The notes under the pieces: generated by a model | Told to the model about the DNA's origin: nothing | Databases searched by the model: none | What the model saw: the letters and a program-made list of their open reading frames with translations, nothing else | Sequence record: NC_054915.1 | Source of the DNA: Escherichia phage vB_EcoM_G8 | Strand: one strand, 5' to 3' | DNA: 64,000 bases | Made by a program: the position numbers and the translations under genes | Shown: positions 7,633 through 43,146 of the stretch, one piece after another | How positions within the stretch are numbered: position 1 is the stretch's first letter | How the letters are laid out: each line of letters opens with the position of its first letter

Positions 7633-8316
7633 TTATCGTTTTGTTGGAAGAGACAGAGGATCGCACTCTTCCTCTGACGGGGCATCTTCAAGACCCATAG
7701 CATATCGCAAAGCATACTTCATCATCAGGATGTCTTTCGCACAGTCATGAATAGAATTATGCGCAACGAATCCATCTAAAGTTCCTTTTGGAAGAGGACA
7801 TGTGGTCATATCACGAACAAGGAGAAGTGCTTCAATTCTAGTACGAATATCACGCTGATTCCAGAATTTACATGGTTCTAGCTTAAATGTGTCAAGCTCA
7901 TTCTCAGAAACGCCGTTAAGACGTTGAATATCGCGAATGAGATCGACTAAAATTGGAAAATCAAACGACATTCCACGGCACCAACCTTGAGATTTCCAAG
8001 GATCGATATTATGTGCATTGATGTAATCATTAAATTTTGCAATACCATCGATAGTGCTTACATCTTCATCTGATGGTGCAATATTTTTTCGAGCTTCAGG
8101 GGATTGATTCTTCCACCATTCGATAGTGCTTTTAGTAAAAAGACGATGTCCTTTTTGGCTTTTTAAATCAAATTTGATTTTAATGCCGCGTGAAACTAAT
8201 TCATCAAATGTTTCAACTACTTCTGGATTAGGGTCAAAGGCAATAACAGCCAAATCAATAACAGCTGCTTTTTCACCACTTCCCATTGTTTCAAAATCTA
8301 TAATAAAATCAAACAT
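7633..8316 (-). CDS. dexA: exonuclease A (DnaQ-like 3'-5' exonuclease)
   Basis: 227-aa ORF, same length as T4 DexA; DEDDh-type motifs (FDFETMG, HNSIHDCAKD). Confidence 0.85.
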   Translation of the reverse strand: MFDFIIDFETMGSGEKAAVIDLAVIAFDPNPEVVETFDELVSRGIKIKFDLKSQKGHRLFTKSTIEWWKNQSPEARKNIAPSDEDVSTIDGIAKFNDYINAHNIDPWKSQGWCRGMSFDFPILVDLIRDIQRLNGVSENELDTFKLEPCKFWNQRDIRTRIEALLLVRDMTTCPLPKGTLDGFVAHNSIHDCAKDILMMKYALRYAMGLEDAPSEEECDPLSLPTKR

Positions 8317-15189: not shown

Positions 15190-15402
15190 TCATTTTGAAT
15201 GCTCTATAATTAATTTTAAGGCTTCTTCACTGACAAAAATTTCATCAGGACCTTCTTCTACAACCCAATCAACCCAATCAACCGTACGAAGCTGATTAGA
15301 TAAGAGCTCACATACGAGCTCTTTGTCATAATCTTTAAATAGCTGGTTAATACGTTTCTTGCGGGCTTTCTTAAGTTGGCGTTTATTTAAACGAGCCATC
15401 AA
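15190..15402 (-). CDS. hypothetical basic small protein
   Basis: 70-aa ORF. Confidence 0.5.
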   Translation of the reverse strand: MMARLNKRQLKKARKKRINQLFKDYDKELVCELLSNQLRTVDWVDWVVEEGPDEIFVSEEALKLIIEHSK

Positions 15403-15917
15403 TAACCTCGGTCTTGACGTGAGAAATTTTCGGCATTTTTCAGATAATAAAGTTTAAAGATTTCTTCAGCTGACATTCCAAGAGCAATAAATTTATTCAT
15501 GAAAAAGTGAAATTGGTCAATTAGTTCAAATTTAATTTCAAGTTGATCTTCGGGAGATAAATCTTGAATTTTCTTGGATTGCATTTCAGAATAACGTTTC
15601 TTCCAAGGTTTCCATACAGCAGAAGCTTCTTTTTCACCATTACTCATACCACCAAGAGAAGTATATAGCTCGCGAGTTTCGTCTGCGATATAATCGTCTT
15701 GGTTTCGCAACCAAGCAAGAACTTCTCCTGCAGTTTCAAGTGAATCAGGATGACGATTTGTTTCTGGCTTATCATTAGCCAAACGAATCTGTAAAGACCG
15801 CTGCATATCAAGCATAACCTGCAATGGGTCAATATTGTGCATAATATTCTCAGCATATGCACGAGTTGCTTTATCAACACCTTCGATCAAATGAGCACAT
15901 TCATTAAAGTGAGCCAT
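15399..15917 (-). CDS. 56: dCTP pyrophosphatase gp56 (MazG-like)
   Basis: track ORF 177 aa; start set at internal MAHFNECAHLIEG (171 aa, T4 gp56 length). Confidence 0.88.
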   Translation of the reverse strand: MAHFNECAHLIEGVDKATRAYAENIMHNIDPLQVMLDMQRSLQIRLANDKPETNRHPDSLETAGEVLAWLRNQDDYIADETRELYTSLGGMSNGEKEASAVWKPWKKRYSEMQSKKIQDLSPEDQLEIKFELIDQFHFFMNKFIALGMSAEEIFKLYYLKNAENFSRQDRGY

Positions 15918-15977: not shown

Positions 15978-16766
<789 letters not shown>

Positions 16767-16867
16767 TCATTTATTGCAGCAAAAATGAATTATACAATTC
16801 TTCATCATATGTATTTGATAGTAATACTAACACGTTTTGCGATAAATATTAATTTAAAGGAGGACAT

Positions 16868-21178: not shown

Positions 21179-21541
21179 TTAAAAGAATTTAAATTTTTTC
21201 TTTGACCTTTTATTAAATGCATCTTGTAGTTGCATTGTAATACATTTTTCTACATGAGGAGCTAACTCAGCTTTTCTTTCTTGGTCAAGAACAGCAAAGT
21301 CCATTACAACCTTTCCATCAACCCAATCCAGTTTAGTTACATACACTATATGTGTAGAACCATCTTCTAGTTTAATGACAATCTCCTGGATAACATTTTC
21401 CATAGCGGATTTAATTATCTTAAGAGACTCATTAAAAAGACGTTCTTTTCTTTCTTCTTCCCCCTCCGAAGAGGGGGATTCATCGATAATTTCTAGATCT
21501 AAGTCTAAATCATCTTTATTCATTAAATTCTTCCATATCAC
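21179..21541 (-). CDS. 40: gp40-like protein (head vertex assembly)
   Basis: 120-aa ORF between 41 and uvsX as in T4. Confidence 0.6.
   Translation of the reverse strand: MIWKNLMNKDDLDLDLEIIDESPSSEGEEERKERLFNESLKIIKSAMENVIQEIVIKLEDGSTHIVYVTKLDWVDGKVVMDFAVLDQERKAELAPHVEKCITMQLQDAFNKRSKKKFKFF
21460..21477 (-). other. perfect 7-bp GC-rich C(UUCG)G hairpin embedded in gene 40 coding sequence
   Basis: plus strand ccccctc-cgaa-gaggggg encoding ESPSSEGEE. Confidence 0.6.
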
Positions 21542-22697
21542 TTAACTGTTCTAGGTCAGTTTCTAAATCAGCTGCTGATTTACTTTTACTTTCTGGAGAT
21601 TTAAATTTTTCAACCTTTGAGTTAATCAATTCATCAACTTCAGCTTCAACAATTTCATTACTATCAATAGCACCTAACTGATAAGCACGTTTAATAGCAT
21701 CTCGGAATGGTTGATGCTTAAATAAAGGACCCCAGAATGTAGTGCAGTTAGTATCTTTTGCACGCCAAGATTTTTCTTCGCGAATCATCTCGCCAGTTTC
21801 TTCGTCAAGAAATTCACGAGCATACCAACCATTTTTAGGTTTTACTACAAATCTTAATTCTAGAGCCATATCTAACAATCCAGAATAAGGATCGATACCA
21901 CCGTCAAATTTAACATCAATAAAGAATTTACTTTTTTCTTTAACGGTACGAGATTTTTCTACATTTAGAACAAATTGATACCCCTGAAGATCAGAACCAT
22001 CTTTAATCTGGCGTTTACCGATAATGAATACGGTATCAGCCGAATACATTACGCCTGTACCACCTGTCATCACGGTTTTACTAAACATTTCAATTGTTTC
22101 AATTGTATGGTTAACCGCAACGCACGGAATATTTTTAATGCTAAAATAAGGAGTAACAATACGGAATAATGACTTCAGTGATTTAGCACGAGTCATATCT
22201 GCCACAGATTTTTCATTCAAGGCATCTTCCGTTTCTTTCTTAGAAGCCATATTACCAATTGAGTCGATGAATACTATAACCTTTTCACCACGCTCAATAG
22301 CTTCAAGCTGATTCACCATATCAATTTTCAGCTGTTCAACTGACTGGATTGGCGTATGAATTACTCGTTCCGGGTCAACTCCCATGGATCGCAAATAAGC
22401 TGGAGTAATACCAAATTCGCTATCATAGAATAGACAAACCGCGTCAGGATATTTGTTCAAATACGCTGCAACCATAGTCAAAGACATATTTGATTTAAAG
22501 TGTTTAGAAGGACCTGCAAAAATAGTTAAACCCGACTGCATGCCGCCATCAATCGCACCAGAAATAGCAATATTAAGCATTGGGATTTTTGTACGGATTA
22601 CATCCTTTTCATTAAAGAATTTAGATGTAGTCAGTTCAGCAGTCATTTTAGAAGTGGAAGCTTTAATCAAACGGGATTTTAAATCTGCAATAGACAT
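21516..22697 (-). CDS. uvsX: UvsX recombinase (RecA-like)
   Basis: 393-aa ORF closely matching remembered T4 UvsX. Confidence 0.95.
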   Translation of the reverse strand: MSIADLKSRLIKASTSKMTAELTTSKFFNEKDVIRTKIPMLNIAISGAIDGGMQSGLTIFAGPSKHFKSNMSLTMVAAYLNKYPDAVCLFYDSEFGITPAYLRSMGVDPERVIHTPIQSVEQLKIDMVNQLEAIERGEKVIVFIDSIGNMASKKETEDALNEKSVADMTRAKSLKSLFRIVTPYFSIKNIPCVAVNHTIETIEMFSKTVMTGGTGVMYSADTVFIIGKRQIKDGSDLQGYQFVLNVEKSRTVKEKSKFFIDVKFDGGIDPYSGLLDMALELRFVVKPKNGWYAREFLDEETGEMIREEKSWRAKDTNCTTFWGPLFKHQPFRDAIKRAYQLGAIDSNEIVEAEVDELINSKVEKFKSPESKSKSAADLETDLEQLSDMEEFNE

Positions 22698-22774
22698 TCA
22701 TTTTTTCCATAGGCATCATTATATTTTCCTCACTGGTTAAAGATAGAGTAATTATAACACAATAAATTTAGGCA

Positions 22775-23623
22775 TTAATCAACTGCTATTGGATGAATAG
22801 CATTAAACTTATGAAATGCTTCTGATTTTTCTTTACGCGAAACACACATGCGAAGAACCTTTAATGGCTCGTCTTCTTCACCCAACGATTTTCGTTTTTC
22901 AATATTCGATGTTTTCCAACGAGCTTGCTCTGGAAACTCTCTATTAATCTGCTCAAGCGCTCTATTATGTTTAGAATTACTACGAATTGAACTGCACCCG
23001 CCAGGAGCTTGTGCTTTTCCAGATACAACTAGATATTTGAACAAGGCCAAATGCGGATAACCTTGATTAATTAAATTGAGAAATGCATACATATCTTCGC
23101 ATAAATCAATTTTTCCATACCCAATTTGTTCTGTCGTAAGTTTTCCGAGGTCATACCACGTATTCGTGAATCCATATGAGTTTTCACGATAATTACCCCA
23201 AGATGAAGTAATTTTAAAAATTGGTAGACGAGCATGGCCATGATAATACCCGCAATCCATGGCATCCTCAACGTATTGAATCAATTCATAGAACTGTTCA
23301 CGAGTTAATTGATTAATTTTATCTACGCGCCGTTTATCGTCTCTCTTTCGTATTGAACTCATACGAATAGTAGTATCATCATCAATCATCCAGATTCGTT
23401 GACCTGCATACATATCAGTAATTGCTTTACGAGTACCGGCAATTCCATTAACATCATCAGGAATAGCTATAATTTTAGCTCTAGACCCATAAGCATCATA
23501 ATAAGCTTTTTCTTCATGTTCACGCACTACAATATGGGGTTCATAATCAGTCGGAAACATATTAAGGGCAGAAACTGCCCCGACGCGCTGATAACTTGGA
23601 ATTACGAATTGAATCATTTCCAC
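22775..23623 (-). CDS. GT-A fold glycosyltransferase at the beta-gt locus (candidate T2/T6-type beta-glucosyl-HMC-alpha-glucosyltransferase)
   Basis: 282-aa ORF; VIPSYQR and DDD (DxD) motifs; sits between uvsX and gene 42 where T4 has 351-aa beta-gt. Confidence 0.65.
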   Translation of the reverse strand: MEMIQFVIPSYQRVGAVSALNMFPTDYEPHIVVREHEEKAYYDAYGSRAKIIAIPDDVNGIAGTRKAITDMYAGQRIWMIDDDTTIRMSSIRKRDDKRRVDKINQLTREQFYELIQYVEDAMDCGYYHGHARLPIFKITSSWGNYRENSYGFTNTWYDLGKLTTEQIGYGKIDLCEDMYAFLNLINQGYPHLALFKYLVVSGKAQAPGGCSSIRSNSKHNRALEQINREFPEQARWKTSNIEKRKSLGEEDEPLKVLRMCVSRKEKSEAFHKFNAIHPIAVD

Positions 23624-24354
23624 TCACCGTTATAATCTTTTTTCACAATATGAGTTTCGCCAGTATTCCACCAATGATCAACCAAGTAAAAATGACGAGA
23701 ATATACATGAAGACTTCCAACATTCCATATAATAGAACCTGCTTTATACTGACGAGTTGAATCGCCGGCATTCAAATCAGATACTAATTTATCTAATACG
23801 TATTTTTGCCATGCATAATCATTACGGAATCCGAAGACCACGTCATTTGAGCGCATGCTTACTACTGCATTGACTTTCTTATCACGAATCAGATACTGTA
23901 CTGTATTAGTACACATGAAATCTGACATGCCATCTTTATTATAGTCAAACTGCATAGATGGACGAGTATAAATCATGATACCACGTCGAGAATCAGGATT
24001 TTGACCAAGTTCAGCTAAACACATATCATACTGGGCATAGTTATCTTCTGACCAGATAGCCCAACCATAATTCGAGTTAATTTCGCCTTTAGAAGATGCT
24101 ACTTGCTGCCAAATCTTCGGTGTTTCACCCGGAATATCTTTAACGAACAAGCTCTTAGATTTATACCATTCAAGTTCACGCTGAATGTATTCATCATTAA
24201 GAGCGCCAAAAATAAACGGTTCATCTGCTACAAATGATGCGCCAATAATTTCAATAGTTTTAACACCAGTTTTATCAACTACGAAATCTTTTTCCTTTAA
24301 TGCAGTTCCCAAATGAAGACGGATTTCTTCAACTGTCATAGAGTCACTAATCAT
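23614..24354 (-). CDS. 42: dCMP hydroxymethylase gp42
   Basis: 246-aa ORF; thymidylate-synthase-like fold motifs; T4 gp42 length. Confidence 0.93.
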   Translation of the reverse strand: MISDSMTVEEIRLHLGTALKEKDFVVDKTGVKTIEIIGASFVADEPFIFGALNDEYIQRELEWYKSKSLFVKDIPGETPKIWQQVASSKGEINSNYGWAIWSEDNYAQYDMCLAELGQNPDSRRGIMIYTRPSMQFDYNKDGMSDFMCTNTVQYLIRDKKVNAVVSMRSNDVVFGFRNDYAWQKYVLDKLVSDLNAGDSTRQYKAGSIIWNVGSLHVYSRHFYLVDHWWNTGETHIVKKDYNGEWK

Positions 24355-24507
24355 TTAAACCTCAATTGATATATTCATATTTAACTTGTAACAGTAATAA
24401 ACCCCAACCTAAAATAATAGTTGGAATCATAAGAGGAACCGTTACACTATAGTATATACTTATTATAATCATCAAGATTAAAAGCAATGCTGCTATAATT
24501 TTGCTTT

Positions 24508-24759
24508 TCATTCCTTCTCTCTGATGATAATTACCTGATTTGGCTGCGCAGACTTTTTAGTTTCACCTGCAATTGACCAAATAAATGTAATAAACCAACC
24601 AATAATTGACCAGTTAAACAGTAAAGACGTGAAAAAGATTCCTACTGTCGATTTTGACCCACGCATCAAGGCGATAAACCATGGAAGCATGTATATAATA
24701 ATAGCCAACACACCTGAAACTAAAACCATAAAAATTGAACCTGCTACTAAAGTTTCCAT
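24508..24759 (-). CDS. imm: Imm superinfection immunity membrane protein
   Basis: 83-aa ORF with two TM segments, T4 Imm length/position. Confidence 0.85.
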   Translation of the reverse strand: METLVAGSIFMVLVSGVLAIIIYMLPWFIALMRGSKSTVGIFFTSLLFNWSIIGWFITFIWSIAGETKKSAQPNQVIIIREKE

Positions 24760-36263: not shown

Positions 36264-37058
36264 CTACGAATAGGCCCAAACATATCCATAAGCAATTTTG
36301 CTTTTTCCAGATATGCACTTTTTAATATTAGACATGCATCCTTTAACGGATACAGCTGCGTCTTTAATTTTAGGAAATACTCGTAATAATTTTCCAGTAG
36401 TATCATATTGAAATACTGGCACATTTCTTTTCTGAGTTATCCCACGTTTAGATTTAGACATTTTTTGTTTAGTTGCATTAGACATCCTAGAGGGCTTTCC
36501 TATGTTATCAGAATAATAATATTTCCATTGAAATCCTCCAGCGGTTTTCCTTTTCCCATCTACACATTGTTTAATTGAACTTGAACAGCTATATGACATA
36601 TCTTCTGCAGCATCTGTAATACATCTATATTTGCGAATAAAATTTCCATTTAAATCATATTGATAAATTGGTTTTCCAGCATTTCGTCTAGCGTTAGACA
36701 TGTATTTTTTATTATCATCATCTTTCCAGAACTCTTTCATGCCTTCCGATATTGAGGAAGATACGGCTGTTTTAATCCATCCATACATTTTATTATTTAG
36801 TCTTGTTCCGTCAGAACTATAACACATCATACGAATAGCTAAAGCCAATTTAGGAAGTCTATAAATTTTAAATAATAATAAATGCGCGGTAAAATGTTCT
36901 TCTGGTGTCAAAAGAACTAAATTAGTTTTATCATCTGTACCACCCATACATCTAGGAATTATATGATGAGTTTCAGTATAGTATGTTAAAAGACTTTTAT
37001 CATTGCCTCTGTTTAGTCCTTTTTCGATCAGTAAATTATATATGTTTAAATAATTCAT
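36264..37058 (-). CDS. HNH homing endonuclease with tandem NUMOD-like DNA-binding repeats
   Basis: 264-aa ORF; HNH core HHIIPRCMGGTDDKTNLVLLTPEEH; two repeats of ...QYD..G..+..+.+I.DAA... Confidence 0.8.
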   Translation of the reverse strand: MNYLNIYNLLIEKGLNRGNDKSLLTYYTETHHIIPRCMGGTDDKTNLVLLTPEEHFTAHLLLFKIYRLPKLALAIRMMCYSSDGTRLNNKMYGWIKTAVSSSISEGMKEFWKDDDNKKYMSNARRNAGKPIYQYDLNGNFIRKYRCITDAAEDMSYSCSSSIKQCVDGKRKTAGGFQWKYYYSDNIGKPSRMSNATKQKMSKSKRGITQKRNVPVFQYDTTGKLLRVFPKIKDAAVSVKGCMSNIKKCISGKSKIAYGYVWAYS

Positions 37059-41378: not shown

Positions 41379-41849
41379 TTAATCATGTTTCCACACCCCA
41401 TCGGTATTTGACCAAAGTCGCTGATTATCTGATCCTCGCCACAGCTTTTTAGTCGGAAGATTTTTCTCATACTTCCCATCAATAATAACATCAACATATT
41501 TAAGCATTTCTAGTTGTTTAATATCTTCAAACTTATATCCTGCCCACAACCAAATGCTTTTATTGGGATAAAGATTTTTAATAGTTTGAACCACAGAGTG
41601 AATCACGTCTCTGTTATCAGGATAAAGAGGGTCACCTCCGGTTATAGTCAATCCTTCTATATAATCATTATTCAAACATTCAATTAATTGTTCTAGTGTT
41701 TCACCAGTGAATGGAATACCATTTCTAGCATTCCATGTTGATTTATTATAACACCCTTCACATTTATGCAAACAACCCGTAACGAAAAGAACGACCCTGC
41801 AACCAGGGCCATTCACAAAATCGCAAGGATAAAATCTATCGTAATTCAT
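41379..41849 (-). CDS. nrdG: anaerobic ribonucleotide reductase activating protein (radical SAM)
   Basis: 156-aa ORF; CxxxCxxC cluster in FVTGCLHKCEGCYN. Confidence 0.9.
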   Translation of the reverse strand: MNYDRFYPCDFVNGPGCRVVLFVTGCLHKCEGCYNKSTWNARNGIPFTGETLEQLIECLNNDYIEGLTITGGDPLYPDNRDVIHSVVQTIKNLYPNKSIWLWAGYKFEDIKQLEMLKYVDVIIDGKYEKNLPTKKLWRGSDNQRLWSNTDGVWKHD

Positions 41850-43119
41850 TGATGCTTAACCCTATGCATGATTTCTTTATTTTTACCGAGATTAAATCCG
41901 CGTTCGTTCGGGTTTCCAAGATATCCGCATGTTCTTCTTATTGTGTTCATCTTTTTAGGATCAGTTTCTCCACAAATAGAACAAACAAATCCGTTTTCAG
42001 TAGGAGTCATTTCATGGGTACTTCCGCATGTAAAACATTTATCTACCGGCATGTTAACACCAAAATAATCTAAATGTTGTGCAGCATAATCCCACACAGC
42101 CTCAAGACCTTTTAAGTTATTTTTCATATCAGGAAGTTCAACATAAGAAATGTGACCACCTGTCGCAATGAAATGATATGGCGCTTCACGAGAAATCTTT
42201 TCAAACGGAGTAATATTTTCTTCTACTGAAACATGGAAACTGTTAGTGTACCAGCCTTTATCGGTAACATCTTTTACACTTCCATATTTTTCTGTATCGA
42301 GTTTACAGAAGCGATAACAAAGGTTTTCAGCAGGAGTAGAATATAAACTAAAAGCAAATCCGGTTCTTTCAGTCCACTGTTTAAGATGAGCATTCATTTT
42401 AGTTAAAATTTCTCGTCCAATACCACGACCAACAAGAATATTCAATTCGTGAATACCTATGTATCCTAGGGACACTGAACTTCTACCGTTTTTAAATAAC
42501 TCAATTATATCGTCATCAGGTTTAAGACGAACCCCGAATGCACCTTCTTGGTAAAGAATAGGAGCAACAGTCGCTTTAACTCCTTTTAAGGAATTGATTC
42601 TACACATCAATGCTTCAAAACATAAATCCATTCGTTCATTGAACAATTCGGCAAATTTCTGTTCATTGAACTGTGTTCCAATATAAGAATCTAACGCAAT
42701 ACGAGGAAGATTCAATGTTACAACGCCAAGATTATTACGTCCATCAAGAATTTCATTACCAGTCGAATCTTTCCATACGCTCAAGAAACTACGGCAACCC
42801 ATTGGAGAAACAGGAATAGATGAACCAGTGATAGCTTTATTATTCTTAGCTGAAATAATATCAGGATACATTCTTTTGCTTGCACACTCTAGAGCAAGCT
42901 GCTTAATATCATAGTTCGGATCGTCTTTATAAAGATTAACACCTTCTTCAACGAACATAACAAGTTTAGGGAAAATAGGAGTTATCCCGTCACGACCAAG
43001 ACCTTTAATACGATTTTTCAGAATTGCTTTCTGAATCATTCGTTCAGTCCAGTCAGTTCCCGTACCAAATGTAATTGTTACAAAAGGTGTTTGCCCGTTT
43101 GAACTGAATAACGTGTTCA
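41846..43119 (-). CDS. nrdD: anaerobic ribonucleotide reductase NrdD, exon 2
   Basis: contains glycyl-radical motif RRTCGYLG and C-terminal Zn-ribbon cysteines; joined to exon 1 gives 605 aa. Confidence 0.88.
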
Positions 43120-43146
43120 CTTCATCAATGTGTTCAGTAGAGTTCG

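Follow-up and report, generated by a model that had tools for sequence, protein, structure and literature searches.

A probable T2/T6-type beta-glucosyl-HMC-alpha-glucosyltransferase in the beta-glucosyltransferase position of Escherichia phage vB_EcoM_G8

The gene lying between uvsX and gene 42 in Escherichia phage vB_EcoM_G8 very probably encodes a T2/T6-type beta-glucosyl-HMC-alpha-glucosyltransferase (ba-gt, also ggt or TAGT), a DxD-dependent GT-A-fold member of the TAGT family that makes gentiobiosyl-hmC. Its identity, fold, intact motifs, synteny and partner genes were all established in the window, by which we mean the whole stretch of DNA analysed, 64 kb of a genome of ~167 kb (Table 1). 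The protein is matched by PHROG 842 ('beta-glucosyl-HMC-alpha-glucosyltransferase') at E = 1.6e-88 across profile positions 3-269 of 270, and by the Pfam TAGT profile (TET-associated glycosyltransferase, PF20691) at 42.1 bits across positions 2-205 of 205, where the gathering score of the profile is 27.5 bits. A tblastn search of the window with the T6 enzyme aligned all 280 residues of the query (96.4% identity), and this locus was the sole match in the 64 kb. DNA of the gene is present at 90% or greater nucleotide identity in 475 phage records, many of which annotate the product as beta-glucosyl-HMC-alpha-glucosyltransferase, and all 475 also list an adjoining dCMP hydroxymethylase or 'thymidylate synthase' gene.

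Table 1. Positions in the 64-kb window of the genes and codons on which the assignment of ba-gt draws.
Feature	Position	Strand	Basis or remark
ba-gt / ggt / TAGT (probable beta-glucosyl-HMC-alpha-glucosyltransferase), 280 aa	22775..23617	-	ORF, PHROG 842, Pfam TAGT, alignments
DxD motif of ba-gt, codons D79-D80-D81 (GAT GAT GAT)	23375..23383	-	predicted metal and UDP-sugar binding site, GT-A fold
Codon R11 (CGC) of ba-gt	23585..23587	-	alignment; invariant family residue, intact in window, His in T2
uvsX recombinase, downstream neighbour bounding the slot	21516..22697	-	ORF; synteny with T4, T6, T2, BGP
gene 42, dCMP hydroxymethylase, directly upstream of ba-gt	23614..24354	-	Pfam thymidylate synthase family
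alpha-gt, DNA alpha-glucosyltransferase, 400 aa	35003..36205	-	Pfam AGT PF11440, 786 bits
gene 56, dCTPase/dUTPase, 172 aa from ATG	15399..15917	-	position and length as gene 56 of T6, BGP, T2
dam, D12-class N6-adenine methyltransferase, 259 aa	15978..16757	-	also in T4, T2, BGP

The minus strand from 23623 down to 22775 is a single uninterrupted open reading frame, as the earlier note had described it, and counts 282 aa if read from a GTG at 23623. That length probably does not stand. Translation most likely begins two codons further in, with the ATG at 23617..23615, giving 280 aa; we prefer this ATG because it overlaps gene 42 by 4 nt (ATGA, with TGA as the stop of that gene), because MIQF or MxxIQF opens the homologues at 48-97% identity, and because it is the annotated start in the T2, BGP, T6 (AP018814) and RB32 records. 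On the same three grounds the GTG was rejected. The GC content of the interval, 0.35-0.37, is that of the surrounding genome, and the plus-strand reading frames within it (43-78 aa) were judged incidental beside a minus-strand gene so well supported. Gene order in the window runs gp41, gp40, uvsX, ba-gt, 42, imm, 43, and the 24.5 kb around ba-gt match many Tequatrovirus genomes at 96-97% identity, including those of vB_EcoM_112, Yersinia phage fPS-65, BGP and EL.

Several smaller features of this neighbourhood deserve mention in their own right. A GC-rich hairpin (GGGGCAG-TTT-CTGCCCT; 23565..23581, minus strand) falls within codons 13-18 of ba-gt, and T2, T6 and RB32 have it too; a scan had flagged it as terminator-like, and we set it aside as a regulatory element after the surrounding 96 nt folded no better than shuffled controls (z = -0.94). 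Between ba-gt and uvsX lie 77 nt (22698..22774, minus strand) that contain TAATGCCTAAATTTATTGTGTTATAAT, with a TATAAT -10 element and TGCCTA ~12 nt upstream of it. This arrangement resembles a MotA-dependent middle promoter of T4, which would make it a candidate driver of uvsX. Between gene 42 and imm there is a strongly hydrophobic 49-aa open reading frame (24362..24511, minus strand) whose stop overlaps the imm start; it has no Pfam match, is annotated as 'Phage protein' in BGP, and corresponds to an unannotated gap of ~150 nt in the T4, T2 and T6 records.

In the structure model of ba-gt, the motif D79-D80-D81 comes after a strand at residues 74-78. This is the DxD motif that had been read from the letters alone, and it is indeed there (GAT GAT GAT, 23383..23375); its three residues are conserved at 98%, 100% and 97% across 153 aligned family sequences and are invariant among close homologues. 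The thirteen most conserved positions of that alignment (I6, P7, R11, R63, D79, D80, D81, E174, D175, G186, G206, G207 and R212) are all kept in the window protein. What was found is a GT-A fold with its DxD motif and other conserved residues intact, and not the two-domain GT-B fold of the T4 beta-glucosyltransferase (b-gt). Inverting GT-A enzymes of the GT2 family (WrtF, 9omh; AvpGT, 9jma; TarS, 5tze; SpsA, 1h7l) share 8-16% identity with ba-gt, a likeness that fits a beta-linked product made from UDP-alpha-glucose. Unlike them, ba-gt has as its acceptor a sugar carried on duplex DNA, and R11, R63, E174-D175, G206-G207 and R212 are conserved residues specific to TAGT.

The TAGT family is broad. 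Word-indexed searches for homologues gave 10 and then 15 proteins; the extent of the family became apparent with an exhaustive profile search, which returned 2022 representatives at E <=1e-3 and 698 at <=1e-10. In so large and diverse a family a transferase might have another specificity, glycosylating hmC directly, adding another sugar or forming a different linkage, a possibility raised for the solitary TAGT homologues of phages that lack both alpha-gt and b-gt; a 2026 survey found a solitary TAGT of unknown function in 288 of 753 transferase-encoding phages (PMC13216743). For the window gene we consider this very unlikely, given its 96-98% protein identity to the enzymes of T6, T2 and BGP, whose product is gentiobiosyl-hmC, its identical genomic slot and its co-occurrence with alpha-gt.

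The residue counts behind these identities are small. The window protein differs from that of BGP at 5 of 280 positions, and the alignment to the T2 and T6 enzymes by which the earlier note had proposed to check its reading returned 8 and 10 substitutions, respectively, in 280 aa. Two residues, N19 and A51, are absent from all three relatives; both positions are poorly conserved, and N19 is the commonest residue in its column among the 153 family sequences.

T4 does have a 351-aa b-gt between gene 42 and uvsX, as had been stated, together with a homing endonuclease, segA, that is missing from the window. T4 b-gt (PF09198, PDB 1JG7) resembles ba-gt in its slot, in its UDP-glucose donor and in the beta linkage it forms on phage DNA, but it has a GT-B rather than a GT-A fold and its acceptor is hmC itself, whereas that of ba-gt is the glucose of alpha-glucosyl-hmC. 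The two proteins are unrelated, as had been claimed: BLASTP of the window protein against T4 b-gt gave E of 8.9 or worse, and neither to b-gt nor to alpha-gt did any similarity appear (E of 1.6 or worse). A homologue of T4 b-gt was likewise not found by tblastn anywhere in the 64-kb window (E of 1.4 or worse). The T4 pairing of alpha-gt with b-gt occurs in only 6 of the 753 transferase-encoding phages of the 2026 survey, most of which pair either alpha-gt or b-gt with a TAGT, and all three transferases occur together in one (PMC13216743). It is T4 that is the exception, and the ba-gt state is the default among Tequatrovirus phages. The original inference from the window sequence, that its slot is filled by an enzyme other than b-gt and that its DNA is modified in the T2/T6 style, is correct but was already known for such phages, and the window does not depart from a known system.

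The alpha-glucosyltransferase on which ba-gt would depend is also present. It had been described as T4-like, and it is 91.75% identical to the T4 enzyme; the allele, however, is of the T2 type, with 3 differences in 400 residues from T2 as against 33 from T4 and 36 from T6. BGP carries a T4/T6-type alpha-gt, which differs from that of the window at 34 of 397 positions. There are thus two allele classes of alpha-gt ~8-9% apart, one comprising the window and T2 and the other T4, T6 and BGP, with the class differences (33-36 substitutions from the window) clustered at residues 254-276. The window gp42, 246 residues long, differs at 1 residue from that of T2, 5 from T6 and 9 from T4. Since alpha-gt and gp42 are T2-like while ba-gt is BGP-like, the region is mosaic. 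Gene 56 was recognised by its place and length; its match to Pfam dUTPase_2 is weak, just under the cut-off.

Other genes near these partners vary among the relatives. The T6 record has no dam at the corresponding position. T2 and BGP have a gene of 181-186 aa after dam that is missing from the window (16758..16867); it sits where the Durham paper places a 'restriction enzyme-like' gene, which that paper assigns to Geo, EL and BGP alone (PMC13390438). Directly upstream of alpha-gt is a 264-aa HNH/NUMOD1 homing endonuclease gene (36264..37058, minus strand) that matches mobB of T4 in position and length, and the T2 and T6 records have none there. The nrdD frame (41846..43120, minus strand) encodes 424 aa, compared with ~605 aa in T2 and T6; an interruption may account for this, perhaps an intron like that of T4 nrdD or a homing endonuclease such as segH of T6.

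The ba-gt of T6 and T2 is likewise 280 aa long, fills the same slot, overlaps gene 42 through the same 4-nt ATGA, has the DDD motif and co-occurs with alpha-gt; the window protein is 96.4% identical to the former and 97.1% to the latter. BGP and EL, of the Durham collection, are among the genomes closest to the window (96.4-96.6% over 24.5 kb), and the BGP ba-gt, in the same slot and with the same gene 42 overlap, is closest of the T2, T6 and BGP proteins. BGP differs in its T4/T6-type alpha-gt, where the window has the T2 type, and in the extra 186-aa gene beside dam. With a T2-type alpha-gt and a ba-gt closest to that of BGP, the window has no exact model among characterised phages.

Two T6 records carry lesions in ba-gt. 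In MH550421 codon 10 is an amber (CAG to TAG, ~7951-7953) and the coding sequence is annotated from Met20, at 261 aa; in AP018814/NC_054907 (~1144) the GATGATGAT tract has lost 3 nt, which reduces DDD to DD and the protein to 279 aa. Both lesions may be mutations of the particular stock or errors of sequencing. That laboratory stocks of T6 harbour such lesions raises the thought that the window frame, too, might be a decayed or non-expressed remnant, a notion to which we give hardly any credence: the window copy has neither the amber nor the deletion, reads through at full length, is free of stop codons and indels when compared with T2 and BGP, and retains every conserved residue, while the overlap of its ATG with the gene 42 stop is consistent with coupled translation. 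By analogy with its near-identical relatives, the window allele is probably active.

How active it is may be another matter, and here T2 is instructive. Gentiobiosyl-hmC amounts to ~5% in T2, ~40% in BGP, EL and Geo, and ~67-72% in T6 and seven other Durham phages (PMC13390438, PMC11078745). The T2 ba-gt (MH751506 8096-8098; AP018813) carries two private substitutions, R11H and P251S, neither of which is in the window protein. R11H results from a single CGT-to-CAT transition at the codon corresponding to 23585..23587 of the window. Among 443 phage records, 100% identity to T2 over a 76-nt stretch that includes this codon is confined to the seven T2 records and SV76, and RB32, among the next-best matches, differs from T2 at the R11H base only. 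Arginine is found at position 11 in 151 of the 153 family sequences, the other two having gaps there, which makes R11H the likeliest source of the low T2 activity; from the alignment, we regard it as a candidate cause of the difference between ~5% in T2 and ~72% in T6. The cited literature on these transferases makes no mention of R11H.

It is conceivable that the window enzyme, though a genuine ba-gt, works as weakly in vivo as that of T2, leaving mostly alpha-glucosyl-hmC and only a few percent of gentiobiosyl-hmC. T2 reaches its low level with an identical gene set, and the modification genes flanking the window ba-gt are T2-like, as their 3 of 400 (alpha-gt) and 1 of 246 (gp42) differences attest. 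We nevertheless consider this improbable, in that R11, the residue most plausibly at fault in T2, is intact in the window along with P251, and that the nearest ba-gt is the one of BGP, where ~40% of cytosines are gentiobiosylated. If R11H does limit T2 to ~5%, the window phage would be heavily gentiobiosylated in spite of its T2-like neighbourhood, and ba-gt alleles would set the glucosylation pattern; this extension we offer tentatively, and somewhat doubt.

We hypothesize that the phage modifies its DNA as follows, taking the chemistry of ba-gt and its consequences for defence from published work on near-identical enzymes. The products of genes 56 and 42 would replace dCTP with hmdCTP, gp56 removing dCTP and thereby leaving hmdCTP alone for incorporation. 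After replication, alpha-gt would add an alpha-linked glucose to most hmC residues, and ba-gt, using UDP-glucose, would attach to the first glucose a second one in beta-1,6 linkage, yielding gentiobiosyl-hmC. In the predicted DNA unmodified hmC would make up roughly one quarter to one third, the other species being alpha-glucosyl-hmC and gentiobiosyl-hmC; beta-glucosyl-hmC would be absent. LC-MS of BGP, EL and Geo detected hmdC, alpha-glucosyl-hmdC and gentiobiosyl-hmdC at ~1:2:2 with no beta-glucosyl form, and the authors ascribed the disaccharide to a TAGT in the T4 b-gt position (PMC13390438). Near-identical enzymes, partner genes and relatives whose DNA bears gentiobiosyl-hmC together lend support to the T2/T6-style modification that the earlier note had predicted.

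Studies of related phages indicate what the second glucose may do. T6 without ba-gt retains only alpha-glucosyl-hmC, and its sensitivity to the Brig1 glycosylase rises (PMC11078745). BapA frees glucose from the DNA of T6 lacking g-gt and not from that of wild-type T6 (bioRxiv 10.64898/2026.02.25.707755). GmrSD targets DNA with gentiobiosyl-hmC as well as both stereoisomers of glucosyl-hmC (PMC13216743), and Durham phages with these modifications are susceptible to BrxU (PMC13390438).

The finding matters only as a correct annotation, one that predicts T2/T6-style modification for the window phage. The pattern of hmC, alpha-glucosyl-hmC and gentiobiosyl-hmC has known effects on how sensitive a phage is to Brig1, BapA/Brig3, GmrSD and BrxU, and a prediction of it is useful in choosing therapeutic phages or restriction enzymes. 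Should the tentative role proposed here for ba-gt alleles hold true, then R11H in T2, and the amber and the DDD-to-DD deletion in T6, would set sensitivity to defences of the Brig1, BapA and GmrSD types.
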